This document shows, piece after piece, positions 27,633 to 35,993 of a DNA stretch of 35,993 nucleotides. The notes below the pieces were generated by a model. The model ran no database searches, was not told the origin of the DNA, and was given only the letters and a program-made list of their open reading frames with translations. Every line of letters begins with the position of its first letter. The stretch's first letter is position 1. Made by a program: the position numbers and the translations under genes. The DNA is taken from the UHGV virus genome UHGV-0194891; one strand, given 5' to 3'. The stretch is from a virus.

Positions 27633-28051
27633 TCGTACCTCCTGTCGGTAAATCTGACACCCTGACCAATAGCCCATGCTGTCGTGTACTCAATCAGGCT
27701 TGCCATGCGCTTCACGCTCATCTGCGCGCTACTTTCGCGAATGTTGACGTATTCACCTTCAAGCCCGGGCAAAACATCAGCTTCCTGCTTTGTTGCCACT
27801 GCATGACCGCTTATCAACAAAACCTTCCATTGTTCTGGTTTTAACCATTTGCCGCACCATTGAACCTGACTTGCGATATCCGCCAGCATCGCGTGAAATT
27901 TTGCGTTCTGGTCAAGGTTGCGCTTGTAGTCAGTAATGCGGATGGTAACTGGCTTGTCTTTATCGAGTGGTGTTGCGAGGATGGCGGTGATTGCGGCTTG
28001 CTGTTGTTGCTTACTCCTGAGGAAAATTGTCTGTTTCATGGAATTCCTCAA
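27629..28051 (-). CDS. ninB: NinB-like recombination protein
   Basis: 140 aa; ...[42 protein letters not shown]... is collinear with lambda NinB. Confidence 0.7.
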
Positions 28052-28260
28052 TATGTGTAAAGGCTATATCCGTTTTTATGTGTCCTGGTGCCATAGCCAT
28101 ATAGGCTCCAGTCATCCTGTTTTCTCTCACCAAAAATATGCTTGCGGTATTCTTCCTGCTGGCGTCTCCATATTTCCATCATGTCTGGCTGGTTCTTTTC
28201 TCGCATTTTTCGAATCTGCTCAAGGATGAACTCTATTTGCTGCTGATTTGTCATGCTCAC
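28048..28260 (-). CDS. Hypothetical small protein
   Basis: 70-aa ORF whose stop overlaps the ninB start; follows the tR2-like terminator. Confidence 0.45.
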   Translation of the reverse strand: MSMTNQQQIEFILEQIRKMREKNQPDMMEIWRRQQEEYRKHIFGERKQDDWSLYGYGTRTHKNGYSLYTY

Positions 28261-28508
28261 TCCTTTACTTTAAATCCAGACTCCGAATAATTCTGTTGCG
28301 CTGAAACTCATTGTTGAGTTTGGACAACCGTCGAAGAACACGGTCACGCGGATAGCGTAGTGCAGCAGGTGAATGCTCATACAACTCATCAATCGGCAAA
28401 CTGGACGATGAACGATACCGATACCAACGCACCAACTCTTCACGAAAATTAGCCCTGACAAGCTAAGCTATCGTACTCATTTCTTAAAGCCTCCAATTCC
28501 CTCTCCCC

Positions 28509-28541
28509 CAAATAAAAAGGCCTGCGATTACCAGCAGGCCT
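28509..28541 (-). terminator. tR2-like intrinsic terminator between the replication genes and the nin region
   Basis: Perfect 8-bp stem AGGCCTGC / GCAGGCCT (plus 28518-28525 and 28534-28541) with an 8-nt loop; on the minus strand it is followed by UUUUUAUUU. Confidence 0.65.
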
Positions 28542-28566
28542 GTTATTAGCTCAGTGATGTAGATGG

Positions 28567-28857
28567 TCATTGCCTTACCTCCATAAGCGCCCTATTAATA
28601 AACGCCGTCATTGGATTTGCACATCCCCACCCCGTACCATCTGGATTTCTTTTAATTGGCTCCTTCTTCACTTTGCGCTTTGCATAAATAACCATCTTCC
28701 ACTTACGCTCAACAACACTCAAATGCCCTTGTTTCACCATATGCCTTGCTGCTTGAGCGATTCTGTTATTTGGTATTCCGGTGATCAGAGCTAATTCATG
28801 TGGGGAGAATTGTTCATGAGTTTTCAGATATTCCAGGATGATTTCTTTTCCAGTCAC
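28567..28857 (-). CDS. Hypothetical DNA-binding protein (possible winged helix)
   Basis: 96-aa ORF starting at the DnaC-like stop; HELALITGIPNNRIAQAARHMVKQGHL looks like a helix-turn-helix. Confidence 0.45.
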   Translation of the reverse strand: MTGKEIILEYLKTHEQFSPHELALITGIPNNRIAQAARHMVKQGHLSVVERKWKMVIYAKRKVKKEPIKRNPDGTGWGCANPMTAFINRALMEVRQ

Positions 28858-29765
28858 GATCTGCTCCTGTAACTATCCCATGTAAACGCAAGAGTGCACC
28901 CTCCGCCATCATTCATCCTGTCAATAACACGCTCACCAATGAATGCCGAAAGTTCATCTTTGCTCTGATTACTAATCAGGATTGTTGGCTTCATGTATTC
29001 ATATCTGGTGTTGATAATTTCGAACATGATTAGCTTTTCAGCATCACTGCCGAACTGCACGCCAACCTCATCGATTATTAACAAGTCAGGATGCGTAAAT
29101 TGCCTAATGACTTCTTCTTCAGTTCTGGTTGCGGCCTTAGACCATGTTGATTTGTACTCTCTGGCAATTTTCAACGCAGTGGTAAATATCACAGAGCTTT
29201 GATGCTCGATAATGGCGTGCCTAGCGATAGCCAGTGCAAGGTGGTTCTTTCCAGTTCCAGGCTTACCACACATGACCAGTCCGCCACCTTTTTGAAGGCG
29301 TTCAGGCCACTTACTGGCATATGCCTGGCATACCTTAAGAACTCGCTTTGCATCATCGTTAACAGGCTCATAATTCTGAAGAGTGCAATTTTTGAACCTC
29401 TCTGGAATATTGAGAGAATTCAACAAATATTCAATTTTTGATTGTCTTGCTCTTTGTTCTGCCTGCTCACGTTCAATCTCTTTCTTACGAATTTTCTCCT
29501 CAAGGCACTGTGGGCACTCAGATTTACTTGAAGTAATTCTTTTTCCTGAGATGGTCAGATATTTCTCATAGGAAGTATATTTACCGTGTTTCTCGCACTC
29601 TTCCACTGTGCTGGTAACTGACATTCCATCTGATACTGATCCAATTTTGCTAAACTCAAGTTTCTGTTTCAGATCAGAAATGTCATTGATTTTTGAGTCT
29701 ACAAGTTGCCTTTGCAGTGCCAGATTGTAACCATTTGTCGTATTCATATTCACTCCTGCGCCCAT
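28854..29765 (-). CDS. DnaC-like replicative helicase loader
   Basis: 303 aa with Walker A (GKPGTGKNHLALAIA) and Walker B-like (LLIIDEVG) motifs; directly downstream of the O-like gene. Confidence 0.8.
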   Translation of the reverse strand: MGAGVNMNTTNGYNLALQRQLVDSKINDISDLKQKLEFSKIGSVSDGMSVTSTVEECEKHGKYTSYEKYLTISGKRITSSKSECPQCLEEKIRKKEIEREQAEQRARQSKIEYLLNSLNIPERFKNCTLQNYEPVNDDAKRVLKVCQAYASKWPERLQKGGGLVMCGKPGTGKNHLALAIARHAIIEHQSSVIFTTALKIAREYKSTWSKAATRTEEEVIRQFTHPDLLIIDEVGVQFGSDAEKLIMFEIINTRYEYMKPTILISNQSKDELSAFIGERVIDRMNDGGGCTLAFTWDSYRSRS

Positions 29766-30595
29766 GAAGGCATTTCAGTTTGCCCGTAATCTTTGGCGGC
29801 AAAGTTTTCCTGCATAGCTCGCTGCTGCGGCCTCGGTTGAGATTTCCCCTTTGGAGTCTTGGGTTCAAAAATCCCCTGCCAACCACTGGCGATGCTCTGG
29901 TTTATAATTTCTTCAGGTGTATATCCCTTCTCCAGACTTCTGCTTAGAACGTTGATAGCCTGAGTGACGCTTTGCTTAGACTTGATCGACTTACCTATCT
30001 CCTTGCGATAGGTAACCCACGACAACCATGTTTCTGCCGATAACCAATCAGGCAACTCTGTTTCTAGCGGGTCGAACTTCTGAGAAATTTTTTTGGGGGA
30101 TATAGGGGGTTTATTAATATTTTCTTTTGTCTTTAAAGAATGTCTTTTGTGTGTCTCTAACTTCGAGACATTGAGTGTCTCTAATTTGGAGACATTTTTT
30201 GTCTCTAACTTCGAGACAAAGTTGCTAACTTGGAGACACTTGCTGAATTGCCACGCAGATACCTCCCTGTCTACACCGATTTGATTTCCATCCATAAACA
30301 GGCAATTCATTGAAATCAGTTCTTTTTTAGCCTTGTTAACATTCTGCCTTGATAGTCCTGTTAACTGAGCAATTTGCTCATCGGCTATTCGATCTGTTTT
30401 CTTATTGAATCCATATGTTTTCCGGACGTAGGCCAGCATAACTTTCAACTGGCGAGCGGTTAAATCGGCACTTGCGATAGCTTCCAGCAGCTCGTTAGCG
30501 AATCTGGTGTAACCATCATCGATATCAGCCACTCTTAGCTCCTGTTCGGCAAAGTTACCTCTGCCGAAGTTGAGTATTTTTGCTGTATTTGTCAT
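29750..30595 (-). CDS. O: Replication initiator, lambda O-like, with in-gene ori
   Basis: N-terminus MTNTAKILNFGRGNFAEQELRVADIDDGYTRFANELLEA... is collinear with lambda O; a repeated SKLETKNVSKLET peptide is encoded by the iterons. Confidence 0.8.
   Translation of the reverse strand: MTNTAKILNFGRGNFAEQELRVADIDDGYTRFANELLEAIASADLTARQLKVMLAYVRKTYGFNKKTDRIADEQIAQLTGLSRQNVNKAKKELISMNCLFMDGNQIGVDREVSAWQFSKCLQVSNFVSKLETKNVSKLETLNVSKLETHKRHSLKTKENINKPPISPKKISQKFDPLETELPDWLSAETWLSWVTYRKEIGKSIKSKQSVTQAINVLSRSLEKGYTPEEIINQSIASGWQGIFEPKTPKGKSQPRPQQRAMQENFAAKDYGQTEMPSWAQE
30152..30238. repeat. Origin iterons inside the O gene
   Basis: TGTCTCTAACTTCGAGACA at 30152-30170 and 30200-30218, TGTCTCTAATTTGGAGACA at 30176-30194, and a degenerate fourth copy at 30221-30238; 24-bp phasing, each an inverted repeat TGTCTC-N7-GAGACA; AT-rich block at 30085-30150. 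Confidence 0.7.
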
Positions 30596-30627
30596 AATGA
30601 CTCCTGTGGATTGATCCAGTAATTACC

Positions 30628-30924
30628 TCAGAATTGCATATCAATTTGCTTAAAATCCTCGGTGGCGGCCGGGGATTTTTTCTTTGTGATTTCATCAAGC
30701 GCATACTTAAAAGCCCTACTAATCGGACTGATGTCTGATGCCATTCCGAAAGCACACAAGACCGAAGCAATAAACCTCCAGTCCGTTCTGCTTATCTTCG
30801 ATTCATGACAGCCAATCATCTTTGCCAAACCGCGCTGGGTAAGCGTTGACAGGTTGATGAGTAAATCAGTTTCAGCGCGATCAATTTCTCGCTGTGTTGG
30901 CTTGCTGTAACTTGCTTGTGTCAT
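30628..30924 (-). CDS. cII: cII-like transcriptional activator
   Basis: 98 aa, same length class as lambda cII; HTH region (LAKMIGCHESKISR) and C-terminal KKKSPAATEDFKQIDMQF parallel lambda KKRPAATERSEQIQMEF. Confidence 0.65.
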   Translation of the reverse strand: MTQASYSKPTQREIDRAETDLLINLSTLTQRGLAKMIGCHESKISRTDWRFIASVLCAFGMASDISPISRAFKYALDEITKKKSPAATEDFKQIDMQF

Positions 30925-31009
30925 TTCTTAATATTTCCAATAGTGAATAGTTAGTTGAAAGGTATGCGTGGAAACTCATATGACCTTAGTTGGTCAGATA
31001 TCTTGGGGC

Positions 31010-31055
31010 TCGCTTTGTCAGCGACGTAGGACGAATGTCCATTGTGAAAAGAGCG
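31010..31055 (-). promoter_or_regulatory. nutR-like site (boxA plus boxB) between cro and cII
   Basis: Minus strand CGCTCTTTTCACAATGG (boxA-like, CGCTCTT core) followed by the hairpin UCGCUGACAAAGCGA (boxB-like, GACAAA loop). Confidence 0.5.
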
Positions 31056-31062
31056 GTGTTAC

Positions 31063-31296
31063 TTATGCTGCTGATGCTCTACGCGATACGAACACCAGGT
31101 TTTCCTTTTTCACGGGTTTATAGGCCGTGAAATTACGAGTAGCTTCTTCGATTGCATTCGCTTTATCAGGGGAAGCTCTTCGAAATCCATATGCAATCTG
31201 GTCAAGATAGCCAACTGAAGTTTTCGCTAATGCGGCGAGTCGCTTCCATTCCTCACTAGAAGCCTCTTTTCGCCAGCGTAGTAGTTCATTACTCAT
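31063..31296 (-). CDS. cro: Cro-like repressor
   Basis: 77-aa ORF divergent from cI across a 113-bp operator region; GGAGG precedes the ATG; HTH-like segment SVGYLDQIAYGF. Confidence 0.6.
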   Translation of the reverse strand: MSNELLRWRKEASSEEWKRLAALAKTSVGYLDQIAYGFRRASPDKANAIEEATRNFTAYKPVKKENLVFVSRRASAA

Positions 31297-31409
31297 TAGT
31301 GCCTCCGTTTATCATACAGAATAACTTTACCATTTTGATAAATCAACCGCAATGTAAATTTATCATATTGCGTATTTATCCATTTGCTAAATAGAGGGAA
31401 AATTGTGAG
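31297..31409. promoter_or_regulatory. Divergent cI/cro control region (OR with PR and PRM)
   Basis: AT-rich intergenic region with repeated TTTATCAT-type elements (31308-31315, 31357-31366) and a TTGATAAATCAA inverted repeat (31335-31346); the same motif family recurs at OL. Confidence 0.55.
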
Positions 31410-32114
31410 ATGGAAAACAAAGATATTCGCAAATCGAATCTGGCGTTTTTGCTAGATGAGCATAAAAAAATCGCGGGTAACACTAATGCAAGCTTTGCCG
31501 ATAAGCTTGGGGTTAGCCCTTCTCAACTCACGCAAGTCTCCGGTGAAAAAAGCACTCGAAACATAGGGGATAAACTAGCAAGAAAATTTGAAGCCGCACT
31601 TGGGTTACCTAATGGGTGGCTTGATTTGGTACATGATGTAACACCAATTGCATCATGCTCAGATTCTTTAACTTTTGTCGGTCAGGTAAGAAAAGGGTTA
31701 GTGCGCGTGGTTGGTGAGGCAATTCTTGGTGTTGATGGTGCCATCGAGATGACCGAAGAGCGCGATGGGTGGCTCAAAATTTATAGCGATGATCCAGATG
31801 CCTTTGGCCTTCGTGTGAAAGGAGACAGCATGTGGCCTAGAATAAAATCAGGAGAATATGTACTCATTGAGCCTAACACCAAAGTATTCCCGGGTGATGA
31901 GGTGTTTGTCAGAACCGTTGAAGGACACAACATGATTAAGGTTCTTGGCTATGACAGAGATGGAGAATACCAATTTACAAGCATCAACCAAGACCACAGG
32001 CCAATAACGTTGCCTTATCATCAAGTAGCAAAGGTGGAGTATGTGGCTGGTATTCTGAAGCAATCTCGCCATCTGGATGACATCGAGGCAAGGGAGTGGC
32101 TGAAAAGTTCGTGA
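31410..32114 (+). CDS. cI: CI-type prophage repressor (HTH plus LexA-like S24 autopeptidase domain)
   Basis: 234 aa; N-terminal HTH (FADKLGVSPSQLTQV), C-terminal GDSMWP serine motif and the downstream Lys (HNMIKVL) typical of RecA-stimulated self-cleaving repressors. Confidence 0.85.
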   Translation: MENKDIRKSNLAFLLDEHKKIAGNTNASFADKLGVSPSQLTQVSGEKSTRNIGDKLARKFEAALGLPNGWLDLVHDVTPIASCSDSLTFVGQVRKGLVRVVGEAILGVDGAIEMTEERDGWLKIYSDDPDAFGLRVKGDSMWPRIKSGEYVLIEPNTKVFPGDEVFVRTVEGHNMIKVLGYDRDGEYQFTSINQDHRPITLPYHQVAKVEYVAGILKQSRHLDDIEAREWLKSS

Positions 32115-32313
32115 CTTCATCGTCCCATAGCTGATAGCCAGTGGCCTGAAGAGACGTTTGGGTGATGGGCAAGGTGTTCTGGTCGGCGCATAGCTGGTGA
32201 AAAAATTATTTAATGCGGTGTATTGGCTGATTGTAACCCCATGTAACATCTTGCCGTCACCATTTCGGTGGTTAGATTTTTAATAAAAAAACAAATGTAT
32301 AGCAAGGTTTTTT

Positions 32314-32793
32314 ATGGATAAAATTAATTACCCACCCCTGTTTGAGCCAGGGTTCCATGACATGGATGAAGCTGGATTAAAATCGTATTGTGTCGATTGC
32401 TTTCCTTCATCATCCAGGCGAGGCATGCTATACTGTAATTTTATACAGCTACTCGAATCTATTCGAGAATTATCTGCTCAATATGGCTGTTTTACAGAAA
32501 TATGGGTTGATGGTTCATACACCACGTCTAAACCAGAGCCTGATGATATTGATATTTTGTTGGTATGTGACTATAGCAATATAAACTCAATACCTGTCAT
32601 GCTTCGGGGCCGCGTCGATAATTTGCTTGACCGAAACTACATCAAACAAAACTACAAAATTGATGTCCTACTACTCATGAAGAATTTAGATGACCCTAAC
32701 TATGATTATGAGTACTGGCGTAGCTACTGGCGCGGTTGGTTTGGTTTTGATCGCAGTGAAAACCCGAAAGGGTTAGTGAGGATTTTTTTATGA
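32314..32793 (+). CDS. Hypothetical protein with Pol-beta-type nucleotidyltransferase-like motif; gene 1 of the cI-adjacent cassette
   Basis: 159 aa; WVDGSYTTSKPEPDDIDILLV fits G[SG]-x(9-13)-DhDh; AT-rich; candidate promoter TTGCCG (32251-32256) and TAGATT (32273-32278) upstream. Confidence 0.6.
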   Translation: MDKINYPPLFEPGFHDMDEAGLKSYCVDCFPSSSRRGMLYCNFIQLLESIRELSAQYGCFTEIWVDGSYTTSKPEPDDIDILLVCDYSNINSIPVMLRGRVDNLLDRNYIKQNYKIDVLLLMKNLDDPNYDYEYWRSYWRGWFGFDRSENPKGLVRIFL

Positions 32794-33722
32794 ATGATAA
32801 ATCAATGTTTAAAAATTGCGATAAACGCATTGATTTCATTCAAAAAGAAGTCGATGCAATGAAGCAAAACAAAACCAGGTCCTTTGCTGACATGCTTCTT
32901 TATCGCTCCATGGATTCTCATCTGAGCGATTTGAAGGCCGAAAAATTAAAGCAAGATAGTCGGCACCCACTTATCGATTTTTTTGAGCTGCGGCTGAAAG
33001 GCTCTGAGGTTGACTTTGGCTCTATTCCTTTAGAGCTGCTTGGGGCTATTTCAACAAATCTTGCAGCGCTAATACAAAGAGCAACACACAAAATTGCCTC
33101 AGGCAAGGACTCAAAAAAAGTTCCCTACGACGTGAAAAGCTCCTTAAACCTCAGGCTGGCTGATTTATCCCCTGGGTCTACAAAATTGGGCGTCACCTTC
33201 TCTACAGGAATAGCAGAATTAGTAGAAACAGTACCCAGCAAGGCTGTAAAAGGCATATTCGATTTGTTGTTAAGCGATGACGACAACAACTTCATGAATC
33301 ACGTCGCTGAAATTGGATACAATTCCACTGTAAGCCTTAAGAGAATCGTAGAGGAATGCGATAAACACAACTTAACATTTGATGCAAGTTGGACCGGTCC
33401 ATTTAGTAATGGCACCAAGGTGGTAACTATTGACTCCAATAAAATTAAGTACTTGGTGAGTAGACTTACATCAACCATTTCATCACCTCCCATTACTGAA
33501 ACGGTTACAGGCGAACTGGTCGTTCTATCCAAATATGGGAAGCTGGAGCTTGATGTTGGTGGTGAACATTTAAAGGCTTCCTATCCGATTGAAATGCTAG
33601 ATTTAATACAAAAAAAACACAAGGTCGGACAGATTGTTTCTCTTTTAGTGGAGACTACTGAGATTCACAATGATCGCATAGGTCTGTACCGTAAAAACCA
33701 TCTTGTTAAATCGGTTCTTTAA
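32790..33722 (+). CDS. Hypothetical 310-aa protein; gene 2 of the cI-adjacent cassette, translationally coupled
   Basis: ATG 32790-32792 overlaps the upstream TGA 32791-32793 (ATGA); AT-rich; no transmembrane segment or motif recognised; followed by a terminator. Confidence 0.65.
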   Translation: MNDKSMFKNCDKRIDFIQKEVDAMKQNKTRSFADMLLYRSMDSHLSDLKAEKLKQDSRHPLIDFFELRLKGSEVDFGSIPLELLGAISTNLAALIQRATHKIASGKDSKKVPYDVKSSLNLRLADLSPGSTKLGVTFSTGIAELVETVPSKAVKGIFDLLLSDDDNNFMNHVAEIGYNSTVSLKRIVEECDKHNLTFDASWTGPFSNGTKVVTIDSNKIKYLVSRLTSTISSPPITETVTGELVVLSKYGKLELDVGGEHLKASYPIEMLDLIQKKHKVGQIVSLLVETTEIHNDRIGLYRKNHLVKSVL

Positions 33723-33729
33723 TATCTCA

Positions 33730-33755
33730 CCCGGCCTCAGCGCCGGGTTTTCTTT
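33730..33755 (+). terminator. Intrinsic terminator closing the cI operon
   Basis: CCCGGC-ctcagc-GCCGGG hairpin followed by TTTTCTTT, 8 nt after the cassette stop codon. Confidence 0.7.
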
Positions 33756-33931
33756 GCCTCTCGATCCCCCACCTAAAAAACATAACTCATTGTATTTATT
33801 GAAAAACTGATTGATACAACTTGCTAAACCACGCAATCCAGATCTCCCTCAAATCTCTTTATTTATCCTGTCGAATTCCTACAACAAAATAAAACACCAT
33901 AAGAATCAATACGATATTTGAAAATCAAAAG

Positions 33932-33984
33932 AATTTATCATTTTGCTATTGCCATTAATTTATCATTCCGATAAAGTTTGCCCA
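33932..33984 (+). promoter_or_regulatory. PL promoter with OL operators
   Basis: -35 TTGCCA (33949-33954), 17 nt, -10 TAAAGT (33972-33977), then CATCAGCAGGACGCACT, which matches the lambda PL start region as recalled. The 17-bp palindrome TTTATCATTCCGATAAA (33959-33975) overlaps the promoter; AATTTATCAT repeats at 33932 and 33957. Confidence 0.6.
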
Positions 33985-34045
33985 TCAGCAGGACGCACTA
34001 CTCACCAGGGCGGTGAATATACAACGATTCGAATATGAATCTACG

Positions 34046-34060
34046 GCGCTGACAAAGCGC
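34046..34060 (+). promoter_or_regulatory. nutL boxB hairpin (P22-type)
   Basis: GCGCTGACAAAGCGC, identical to the P22 boxB-left RNA as I recall it; lies in the PL leader about 260 nt upstream of N. No canonical boxA seen upstream. Confidence 0.6.
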
Positions 34061-34321
34061 AATAACCAAAGTGAACTTTGGGGTGTGGTGAAGCCAGCTA
34101 GTCACTGGCAAGTGCTTACCTACTGTTGAGCGGTGAAGCGCTCCCAACGCTAGCAATAGCGTGGACGAGATGGGGAGCCGCGGGCGATAAGGCCGCCATA
34201 ACGCGCACGTTGTCGCATGGAAAAATCACTGGGGTGCCGGTTATACCCCTCCGAATGAGACTCAACAAGCTGGAGCTAGACTACCAGCCACCACACCACC
34301 AAAGTTCATCAGGAGGTCTAT

Positions 34322-34705
34322 ATGACACGCAGAACTCAGTTCAAAGGCAATTCACGTTCTCGTCGTCGTGAGCGTTTAAAGGCAAAGGCATTAGCTAACG
34401 GCGTACTGGCCCGCGAAGAAGCAATAAGTTCAGAAGTATTACACCGCCCTACTCTAAGCAGATCGCAGATTCAGGCTAAAGGTACTCACGAAACGCCTGA
34501 GCGCATAGAAGACGCTAAGCCAATTAAGTTCATGGCACAGGACGTGATCTGGCAACAGAAAGAATACAGACGCAATCTGGAGCGAGCGGCCATTGTGTAC
34601 GCGAATGAGTTTGGACATAAGCAACCAGAAACTGGTGTATGTCTTCCAAACGTAGCCATTTACGCGGCAGGCTACAGGAAATCAAAACAACTGACAGCGA
34701 GGTAA
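34322..34705 (+). CDS. N: N-like antiterminator (P22 gp24-like)
   Basis: 127 aa; N-terminal arginine-rich motif (TRRTQFKGNSRSRRRERLKAKA) and C-terminal ...VAIYAAGYRKSKQLTAR; first gene of the PL operon downstream of the nutL boxB. Confidence 0.7.
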   Translation: MTRRTQFKGNSRSRRRERLKAKALANGVLAREEAISSEVLHRPTLSRSQIQAKGTHETPERIEDAKPIKFMAQDVIWQQKEYRRNLERAAIVYANEFGHKQPETGVCLPNVAIYAAGYRKSKQLTAR

Positions 34706-34708
34706 GTG

Positions 34709-34933
34709 ATGAATCAGACATACATACCATCATGCTTGAGAAATCTGCCAAAGCAGAAAGCAAAGCCCCGCAAGCAAGCCATAAAGGACGCTAAGGCAGA
34801 GGTTATTGATCAAGCAATACAATTGCTCAGGGATGAGTTAAGAAGTGGCAAGCTCGAAGGAATGATGATGCCCTATCAGCGCGGATATCTATCGGCGATT
34901 AGTAAGTTGGAAGTATTGAAGAGTGAATTATGA
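34709..34933 (+). CDS. Hypothetical early-left protein
   Basis: About 74-aa ORF starting right after the N stop (ATG 34709; the track uses GTG 34706). Confidence 0.4.
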   Translation: MNQTYIPSCLRNLPKQKAKPRKQAIKDAKAEVIDQAIQLLRDELRSGKLEGMMMPYQRGYLSAISKLEVLKSEL

Positions 34934-34996
34934 ACTATCTGGAATTTCCGGATGGTTCATTGTTTTGGCAGCAAACCACTGTATGAGGGATGAATT

Positions 34997-35311
34997 ATGG
35001 CGTCGAACGGAATTAGCTTTAAAGACAATAATCTTTTAAGTCTCCGAGTTGATGAGATAATTTCCATTGTTACAACCTTTCCGACAAAAAAGGAAGCGTT
35101 AAAAGCTGGTTCTAAATATGGATGGTCATCAGCTTTCCTTATAGAGCGTAGATTTGAAAAGGTTTGGTTGGTGGGGAAAAAGGATTTCCAAAACGACCAT
35201 ATCGGGAAGGTGGAGTTCGAAGTATTCCGCATCCCATTGTTGAGATGGGAAAAGACTGCTGGAATTACACACTGCCCAATTATTTCAGTGCGCAGATATA
35301 AAGCCACATAG
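34997..35311 (+). CDS. Hypothetical early-left protein, AT-rich
   Basis: 104-aa ORF with markedly lower GC than its neighbours; no motif recognised. Confidence 0.45.
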   Translation: MASNGISFKDNNLLSLRVDEIISIVTTFPTKKEALKAGSKYGWSSAFLIERRFEKVWLVGKKDFQNDHIGKVEFEVFRIPLLRWEKTAGITHCPIISVRRYKAT

Positions 35312-35350
35312 TCGGCCTTTATTTTTGGCATAAATACACAGAGGTGAATA

Positions 35351-35602
35351 ATGACAGTAGGAAGAATGAAAAGGCCATGGAATGTTGTTGGCGCTGGATT
35401 TAACGATGATGGGGTTTATTTCACGTTTGACGATACAACCATCCATCGAGATGATGTGAGATTGATGGAGGCAGCTCCTGATTTGCTCGAAGCTCTGCAA
35501 GCGATGCTAAACAAGGCATACAAGCAAAAATTGAATGACCATTATCCTGATGAAGTATCGAAAGCACTGTCAGCAATCAGCAAAGCTCTTGGAGGTGAGT
35601 GA
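35351..35602 (+). CDS. Hypothetical early-left protein
   Basis: 83-aa ORF; its stop overlaps the next start (TGATG). Confidence 0.45.
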   Translation: MTVGRMKRPWNVVGAGFNDDGVYFTFDDTTIHRDDVRLMEAAPDLLEALQAMLNKAYKQKLNDHYPDEVSKALSAISKALGGE

Positions 35603-35802
35603 TGTGCGAGTTTTATGAAGCAGATATCAAACGCCCAGAAATGGCAAGTGATGCGACATTACGTGATTACTTCGCGGCAAAGGCTATGCAAGCAATGATT
35701 AGCAATCCATCGATTATCGATAATGATTCTGATGGAGCTGTTAATTATGCAGCAAGCGCTGCATATAAGTTTGCAGACGCAATGCTCAAAGCTCGCGAAT
35801 AA
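35599..35802 (+). CDS. Hypothetical early-left protein
   Basis: 67-aa acidic ORF, translationally coupled to the previous ORF. Confidence 0.45.
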   Translation: MMCEFYEADIKRPEMASDATLRDYFAAKAMQAMISNPSIIDNDSDGAVNYAASAAYKFADAMLKARE

Positions 35803-35937
35803 GCACTGTGTATTCATTCCAACGAGTGAATACACGGAGCAATGTCGCTCGTAACTAAACATGAGCCGACTTGTTCTGATTATTGGAAATCTTCTTTGCC
35901 CTCACATTGGAGGGCAATTTTTTTGACGGAGGATATA

Positions 35938-35993
35938 TGAGTGAAGTAACAGATTTAGTTGTTATTGAAAAAGCAAATGCAATGACTGTATTT
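35938..35993 (+). CDS. Hypothetical protein, 5' fragment (continues beyond the window)
   Basis: ATG at 35938 preceded by GGAGG; MSEVTDLVVIEKANAMTVF... runs to the window edge. Confidence 0.3.

Follow-up and report, generated by a model that had tools for sequence, protein, structure and literature searches.

The 35,993-nucleotide (nt) virus genome UHGV-0194891, which is called the window in its full length, carries two overlapping genes, A and B, between a cI-like repressor gene and the gene for antiterminator N. What would such a pair do in the slot that rexA and rexB occupy in lambda? An earlier note, made from the letters of this DNA alone, had expected an undescribed defence or exclusion system there. 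Our favoured answer, to which we assign a probability of roughly 0.4, is a mobile conflict module expressed in lysogens, most likely for superinfection exclusion or anti-phage defence, in which B docks and controls A. The two genes are as follows.

32314..32793, + strand: gene A, 159 amino acids (aa), isoelectric point (pI) 4.7, DUF6932 / PDC-M63A
32790..33722, + strand: gene B, 310 aa, PDC-M63B, 4-nt overlap with A

The product of gene A matched Pfam DUF6932 (E = 1.7e-24), PADLOC PDC-M63A (E = 1.8e-41, residues 1-158) and phrog_9194. A minimal nucleotidyltransferase signature had been read in this gene; it was indeed present (WVDGSYTTSKPEPDDIDILLV), and its residues G67, S68, D78 and D80 were invariant. 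Conservation was assessed with 38 homologues of 34-79% identity, which gave the following elements.

32512..32553, + strand: catalytic motif G67-S68-x9-D78-x-D80 of gene A, invariant in 38/38 homologues
32662..32664, + strand: D117 of gene A, third acidic residue of the triad, D in 37/38 homologues
32719..32748, + strand: C-terminal motif RSYWRGWFGF of gene A, residues 136-145

Invariant or nearly invariant positions were W64, D66, G67, S68, T71, K73, P76, D78, D80, D117 and the block RSYWRGWFGF..R.E..KG, and RSYWRGWFGF itself was retained completely or almost so in the A proteins paired with B. NTP_transf_2 (best E = 8.8e-6), Polbeta or DNA_pol_B_palm was matched by 22-23 of the 38 homologues; the A protein of the window itself was recognised by a nucleotidyltransferase profile only at E = 0.044. 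Furthermore, the DUF6932 family profile gave a marginal match to Pol beta in the PDB (E ~0.4), in which motif was aligned on motif and the GS..DxD of the family fell on G179 S180..D190xD192 of Pol beta. Direct PDB sequence searches with the A or B protein gave noise only (flavodoxin, LPXTG protein). Because the GS/DxD/D residues are conserved and Pol-beta profiles are matched, A is, as judged from its sequence, a minimal Pol-beta-type nucleotidyltransferase with an intact predicted active site. A likeness of RSYWRGW to the string RSYWLGGW in ribosome modulation factor (PDB 2jrm, E = 0.28) was also observed; it was set aside as probably due to chance.

An enzyme of this kind might also be a source of signals. 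In that case, A would make a nucleotide messenger, constitutively or on infection, and B would bind it with the OB fold or the central domain, as in CBASS, Clover and Panoptes. The Pol-beta-fold enzymes include the CD-NTases, the family profile marginally matched 6e0k (E = 0.5), and two-gene systems of a nucleotidyltransferase plus a partner are known. However, A, with only 159 aa, does not have the second lobe of the CD-NTases, neither protein matched a PADLOC model of CBASS, and B has no recognisable effector domain (nuclease, transmembrane segment or NADase). Moreover, a diffusible signal would not need the physical coupling through a common hairpin that is described below. We regard a signalling role as highly improbable.

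The product of gene B matched PADLOC PDC-M63B (E = 6.9e-45, residues 23-304) and phrog_6603, and no Pfam or NCBIfam family was matched. Its family is small, with 264 clusters at 50% identity and lengths of ~305-320 aa among 1.84 billion representative proteins, and a homologue search with a wide B alignment returned the same close set as before. In 85% of locus pairs, divergence was faster for B than for A. The AlphaFold2 model built from close relatives was poor, with a predicted local distance difference test (pLDDT) score of 71. The model built from 81 sequences of 18-47% identity was confident (pLDDT 92.5; predicted template modelling score 0.83) and gave the following parts.

32790..32966, + strand: N-terminal helical hairpin of B (helices 3-26 and 32-57), predicted structure
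32970..33485, + strand: central alpha/beta domain of B, residues 61-232
33177..33179, + strand: S130 of B, the sole invariant residue of the family (81/81 sequences)
33486..33719, + strand: C-terminal OB-fold domain of B, residues 233-310, AlphaFold2 model

In the model, the C-terminal domain is a classical OB fold, a barrel of five strands in which a helix separates strand 3 from strand 4, and its closest likenesses were to the domains of SSB, RuvA and RPA. Conserved basic and aromatic positions lie in its loops and strands, but across the family the pI of the domain is near neutral; nucleic-acid binding by the modelled domain is plausible. No solved structural relative was found for the central alpha/beta domain. 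No conserved set of acidic, basic and His residues was found across the 81 family members; thus, B is probably not an enzyme. In addition, doubt about a HEPN assignment from the RSMDSH string (R39-x4-H44) proved justified: the R was present in 10/81 and the H in 52/81 family members. Since this string is not conserved, and no HEPN motif or fold was seen, we rejected the HEPN reading; likewise, neither cassette protein matched a HEPN family in Pfam or PADLOC.

S130 lies, together with G129, in the turn of an exposed beta-hairpin of the model; it could serve for nucleotidylation or have a structural role only. As a nucleotidylation site it would fit the type VII toxin-antitoxin logic of MntA-HepT. 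A would then be an antitoxin that nucleotidylates B, for example at S130; the unmodified B would be a non-catalytic effector, for example through an OB fold coating single-stranded DNA or RNA; and the module would stabilise the prophage, abort infection, or both. The nucleotidyltransferase-first order and the 4-nt overlap are the same as those of MNT-HEPN pairs, the acidic A (pI 4.7) and the mildly basic B (pI 8.3) of this phage show the usual polarity of antitoxin and toxin, and the invariant Ser in an exposed turn points in the same direction. Against this, B lacks toxin-like features, with neither a HEPN motif or fold nor conserved catalytic residues, and it is not basic across its family. 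An antitoxin role of A is the chief rival of the favoured reading, conceivable but doubtful.

A second partner of A was informative about the hairpin of B. In five Bacteroidota loci (L138, L142, L146, L147 and L156), HsdR, not B, lies downstream of A. This HsdR has ~855 aa with ResIII, Helicase_C and EcoEI_R_C domains (PADLOC REase_I, E = 7.6e-52), and a fused HsdM-HsdS of ~1050 aa lies upstream of A in 4/5 loci, the upstream sequence of L147 being too short. The A proteins of these operons matched PDC-M63A (E = 4.5e-45). By gene order and profile matches, then, A is embedded in type I restriction operons of Bacteroidota. In 3/5 loci, residues 1 to 65-110 of HsdR matched the hidden Markov model (HMM) of the B family and were aligned to the B hairpin. 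In the HsdR proteins of these operons, an ordinary HsdR nuclease start (PD..ExK) follows the hairpin. Conversely, when an HMM of the five HsdR N-termini was run against 7398 open reading frames (ORFs) from all fetched loci, it found, beyond the five, only B proteins (best E = 3.6e-12, low bias). These reciprocal matches indicate that the N-terminal extension of HsdR is homologous to the hairpin of B.

The A proteins paired with HsdR kept the catalytic residues, with D or E as the third acidic residue, and RSYWRGWFGF was degenerate in exactly these five. Because the hairpin accompanies A on both partners, the hairpin of B is probably a docking module for A. The loss of RSYWRGWFGF with HsdR as partner would relate this motif to the body of B or to the ligand of B. 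The same loci bear on the antitoxin role in two ways. The partner of A is clearly the effector in the HsdR variants, so that A would be the regulator; on the other hand, the hairpin common to HsdR and B does not include the invariant Ser.

A bolder form of the defence reading is that A is a portable immune effector, plugged through the hairpin onto either an OB-fold sensor in prophage immunity regions or the HsdR motor of type I restriction enzymes; on release or activation, A would nucleotidylate the ends of phage or host nucleic acids, or a key protein. We think this unlikely; if true, it would mean an undescribed defence chemistry and an undescribed accessory of restriction enzymes. The hairpin shared with HsdR in any case hints at an unnoticed accessory of type I restriction and gives a concrete interface. 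As a side observation, three loci of Emticicia and Dyadobacter (L143, L148 and L158) have an A-like gene followed by an ORF of 68-72 aa and sugar-nucleotide enzymes, and neither B nor HsdR was found downstream of the A-like gene; these genes may be orphans or decayed modules.

The position of the pair was examined in viral and cellular genomes. The features that surround it in the window are as follows.

31410..32114, + strand: cI-like repressor with a helix-turn-helix (HTH) and an S24 peptidase domain (Pfam Peptidase_S24, E = 3.8e-16)
33729..33755, + strand: intrinsic terminator, which closes the cI-A-B transcription unit ahead of OL/PL
33934..33977, + strand: OL/PL region, two TTTATCAT half-sites and a promoter-like TTGCCA-17 nt-TAAAGT
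34322..34705, + strand: antiterminator N (Pfam N_peptide, E = 2.8e-15)

On the + strand, the order is therefore cI, gene A, gene B, terminator, operator/promoter region and N, and the cassette lies within the transcription path of cI. The layout of lambda, cI-rexA-rexB-terminator-OL/PL-N, matches this order. The two-gene cassette described earlier between cI and the terminator, upstream of OL/PL and N, was thus found with all of its features in place, including the coupling of the two genes by ATGA at 32790-32793, which can be read directly from the sequence.

In an IMG/VR scan, relatives of A were encoded on 109 viral contigs, 80 of which were fetched. B followed A directly in 79/80 of these loci, the exception being cut by the contig end, and most of the pairs overlapped by 4 nt. 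In 58 of the 78 assessable loci, a repressor of the cI/S24 or HTH type was found directly upstream on the same strand at a distance of 56-583 nt; one further locus had an S24 repressor slightly farther off. At 70% identity, 25 repressor types preceded A-B pairs, and the cassette type of the window alone stood behind 8 of them. Hence, the assignment to a rexAB-equivalent slot is well backed. This repeated siting behind repressors is strong evidence, from position, that the pair is expressed in lysogens, where it would be co-transcribed with cI. In distant phages the pair was found at other sites of accessory genes, namely after a baseplate hub gene, a lysin or a Dam methylase.

In other E. coli prophages with the same cI, the slot held HigB with an HTH protein in some strains, and DUF3024, Stk kinase together with DUF3024, or rexAB in others. 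The pair accordingly competes for a slot of exclusion and toxin-antitoxin genes, and such a cassette is not surprising between cI and PL, yet it is widespread. A scan of one genome per species found A in 72 species of at least 12 phyla, and these numbers are minima, since the scan depends on conserved motifs. The taxa included Gamma-, Beta-, Alpha- and Deltaproteobacteria, Bacteroidota, Ignavibacteriae, Nitrospirae and Parcubacteria, as well as Bacillota, Acidobacteriota, Verrucomicrobiota, Planctomycetota, Chloroflexi and Fibrobacterota. The cassette family is rare yet widespread. B adjoined A in 58/72 of these loci. The contexts included a YoeB/Phd toxin-antitoxin pair with type I restriction genes, an unrelated prophage repressor, a large helicase-nuclease, and a mobile element carrying anti-restriction genes. 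Some A-B loci had no defence neighbours, and one stood beside the mutasome genes ImuB/DnaE2 and DinB.

The pair has been catalogued before. With both models matched in the right order, the A-B pair is, by profile, a member of the PADLOC candidate family PDC-M63. This is one of 145 'phage defence candidates' (Payne et al. 2024, bioRxiv 10.1101/2024.01.29.577857), whose starting point was genes lying inside BREX, DISARM and type I restriction loci; the table of the preprint lists it as cassette CAS_00189, with a count of 45 and the entry 'Assign as candidate' (bioRxiv 10.1101/2024.01.29.577857). The 'M' prefix in these names appears to denote multi-gene candidates. In the literature searched, we found no description of the function, structure or repressor-adjacent position of PDC-M63; DUF6932 was not mentioned in the searchable full texts, and nothing was found in the DefensePredictor supplements. 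Furthermore, phage mEpX1, sequenced in 2012, carries a 99.3-99.4% identical cassette between a different cI and N/Nun, where it is annotated as hypothetical. The word 'undescribed' in the earlier note is therefore too strong as regards the existence of the cassette and stands as regards its function, which has candidate status only. What is new here is the siting next to repressors, the spread over at least 12 phyla, and the restriction-operon variant of Bacteroidota with its HsdR hairpin.

In the literature that could be searched, PDC-M63 has been put to an experiment only once: PDC-M63AB was deleted from E. coli NILS69, its native host, and infection by 10 virulent phages was unchanged. There the genes lie in a prophage; the panel had no temperate phages, and its narrowness is flagged by the authors themselves.

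This negative result could also mean that the pair is a non-defence accessory in a permissive slot, of use to phage or host in another way, for example for DNA repair or recombination, or for the tuning of lysogeny. The OB fold nearest to SSB, RuvA and RPA domains, the locus beside ImuB/DnaE2 and DinB, and the loci that have no defence neighbours would agree with such a role. However, the module moves among unrelated repressors, mobile elements and restriction-modification islands in at least 12 phyla, A is embedded inside type I restriction operons, the pair was picked up independently by guilt-by-embedding, and the slot otherwise houses exclusion and toxin-antitoxin genes. A role outside defence seems improbable to us, and both this role and signalling are less likely than a conflict module or a type VII pair.

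The cassette also occurs in 18/5426 complete E. coli genomes. Its mobility was apparent when the window was compared by blastn with mEpX1 and 15 other viral loci: the cassettes were 98.5-99.6% identical and the flanks were unrelated. On the left, homology began at 32120-32164, in most cases at 32139-32141; on the right it ended at 33751-33773, in most cases at 33758. From these homology boundaries with unrelated flanks, the mobile unit consists of a 175-nt leader, both genes and the terminator.

32139..33758, + strand: mobile cassette unit, 1.62 kb, leader + A + B + terminator
32139..32313, + strand: leader, 175 nt, which travels with the cassette

Two natural truncations were observed. In E. 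coli KL53 the match begins inside gene A (query base 276), so that A looks 5'-truncated with B intact, and in locus L037 B is shortened to 221 aa. Such truncated loci could tell which of the two proteins can be dispensed with or is toxic. At the right end of the cassette, the terminator segment (33717-33760) is 93% conserved in 933W-type Stx phages that have no cassette; this segment may be a recombination joint for cargo swap in the cI-to-PL slot.

Foldseek searches against viral models placed B close to two proteins: one with a DUF6575 domain (E = 8e-14), and LE1-0037 from Leptospira phage LE1, which was matched at E = 4.5e-9 over 346 alignment columns. LE1-0037 is PDC-M02B, and LE1-0038 just upstream is PDC-M02A, with a DUF4365 PD-(D/E)xK domain. 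In the phage sequence (L090, BX571876, 38735-43418, minus strand), PDC-M02A and PDC-M02B (381 aa) are adjacent to an MmeI-type IIG enzyme; by gene content, the PDC-M02 and MmeI-type genes form a small phage defence island. A link between the DUF4365 nuclease domain and short prokaryotic Argonaute systems of the SPARDA type has been described (PMC10810196). When the B family was compared with LE1-0037 by hhalign, no signal was obtained; the link is structural only, and the relation is therefore to be taken as a lead. The pairing of PDC-M02B with a nuclease suggests that a B-like partner takes interchangeable small enzymes. It also speaks against A as an antitoxin, since a nuclease would be a poor one.

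How would a lysogen-expressed conflict module of this kind work? We envisage that A docks on the N-terminal hairpin of B, and that B restrains A and, with its OB fold and central domain, recognises the trigger or target. When a phage infects the lysogen, and this may plausibly be another temperate phage, A would transfer nucleotides onto a macromolecule. The acceptor could be a nucleic acid, modified at its 3' end in the manner of MenT-type toxins, or else a protein. Such nucleotidylation would halt phage development, and the cell would probably pay for this.

Several points weigh against this proposal, besides the unchanged infection of the NILS69 deletion and the purely structural link to PDC-M02B. 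A is acidic throughout its family, with a median pI of 5.0, and the proteins of the B family are not basic (median pI 5.9; OB domain 7.3; 8.3 for the B of this phage), an unusual combination for a complex that modifies nucleic acids, and the OB fold of B could bind protein, not nucleic acid. The HsdR variants retain their PD..ExK nuclease, and A in restriction operons need not be an effector but could be a regulator. The hairpin could be a general oligomerisation element and not a docking site for A. Finally, support for a promoter of the cassette does not go beyond a candidate that agrees with the consensus at 8/12 positions and that the promoter scan did not report.

If active, the conflict module would be a new pairing for prophage immunity, in which a minimal nucleotidyltransferase is combined with an OB-fold partner instead of a HEPN RNase. 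Its siting behind many repressors leads to the prediction that it is made in lysogens and acts on superinfecting, probably temperate, phages. The system is tractable: the cassette is of E. coli origin, it occurs in the cultivable lambdoid phage mEpX1, and it has 1.6 kb including leader and terminator.

The remaining features of the locus concern its regulation and identity. The window is a complete or nearly complete lambdoid phage genome. The 36-kb IMG/VR contig L016 is 100% identical to it over 31400-34400, an exact copy of the gene B product has been deposited as a protein of an uncultured Caudoviricetes genome, and in E. coli PM7 the cI-like repressor carries the annotation LexA family regulator. 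Two further features are as follows.

31063-31296, divergent from cI: cro
32251..32278, + strand: candidate promoter TTGCCG-16 nt-TAGATT of the earlier note, read from the sequence

The octamer TTTATCAT occurs at 31308 and 31359, between cro and cI, and at 33934 and 33959, past the terminator and just before the PL-like promoter; the window has 6 copies in total against 1.2 expected. These copies are likely operator half-sites of this immunity type, and the pairs in the cro-cI gap and before PL would be OR and OL of one repressor. The terminator downstream of gene B was as expected: a stem of 7 bp with 6 G-C pairs (33729-33748) followed by TTTCTTT, with a folding energy of -13.7 kcal/mol and z = -3.0.

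The leader may hold a promoter, and none was convincing. The sequence of the candidate promoter above is present, but it agrees with the consensus only at the 8 of 12 positions mentioned and falls below the scan threshold; in the leader region, promoter-like sites were no commoner than in shuffled sequence. The leader RNA showed nothing unusual in its fold (z = -0.94), and the search of Rfam on the leader and nearby sequence gave a sub-threshold STnc310 match only. With -7.2 kcal/mol and z = -0.7, a leader hairpin at 32253-32272 was rejected as a terminator between cI and gene A because of its weakness; transcription from cI may thus plausibly read through into the cassette. Shine-Dalgarno-like strings, AAGG and GAGG, lie 6-8 nt upstream of the two cassette genes. 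The cassette genes are indeed more AT-rich than the structural genes (about 40% against 53% GC). The GC contents were 39.6% for gene A, 40.3% for gene B, 44.7% for cI, 53.1% for bases 1-27000 and 42.7% for the early region (28000-35993), so that the contrast with the immediate neighbours is small.

Elsewhere in the early region, three tandem 24-nt units (TTGTGTGTCTCTAACTTCGAGACA) were observed at 30147-30218, inside a minus-strand ORF (29750-30595). They encode the repeated peptide VSKLET in an O-like replication protein, and by analogy with lambda they are probably origin iterons inside the replication gene.

The cassette was compared with known systems. It resembles HepT-MntA in that a minimal, acidic Pol-beta-type nucleotidyltransferase gene comes first and is coupled to a larger partner. 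It differs in the partner, which in HepT-MntA is a HEPN RNase with Rx4-6H and here, in the model, is a hairpin followed by an alpha/beta and an OB domain. With AbiE and MenAT (AbiEii, MenT; DUF1814) it shares a nucleotidyltransferase as the sole enzyme of a two-gene module, and the model of nucleotide addition to RNA 3' ends by A is borrowed from AbiE/MenT. In contrast to these, A is half the size, B is not an antitoxin with an AbiEi-type HTH, and the gene order is reversed; no Pfam or PADLOC match to AbiE/MenT families was found at E up to 1.

RexAB, Stk of 933W and HigBA occupy the same position, downstream of cI and before the terminator and OL/PL, with a presumed logic of lysogen-expressed exclusion. 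There is no sequence or domain relationship to the cassette; neither A nor B matched RexA or RexB in PADLOC or Pfam. A and B are soluble, in contrast to the membrane protein RexB. PDC-M02 also consists of a small enzyme gene followed by a Foldseek-matched partner, and it is phage-borne and stands beside a restriction enzyme; its enzyme, however, is a PD-(D/E)xK nuclease, and it is likewise only a candidate.

Finally, the A genes of the Bacteroidota operons resemble PrrC in EcoprrI, an enzyme embedded in a type I restriction locus. PrrC is an ABC-ATPase anticodon nuclease, whereas A is a predicted nucleotidyltransferase; unlike the PrrC locus, the Bacteroidota operons have an HsdR with a dedicated N-terminal hairpin, and the window has no restriction system. 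By analogy, the likeness to PrrC suggests that A is a latent enzyme held by, or guarding, the restriction complex.

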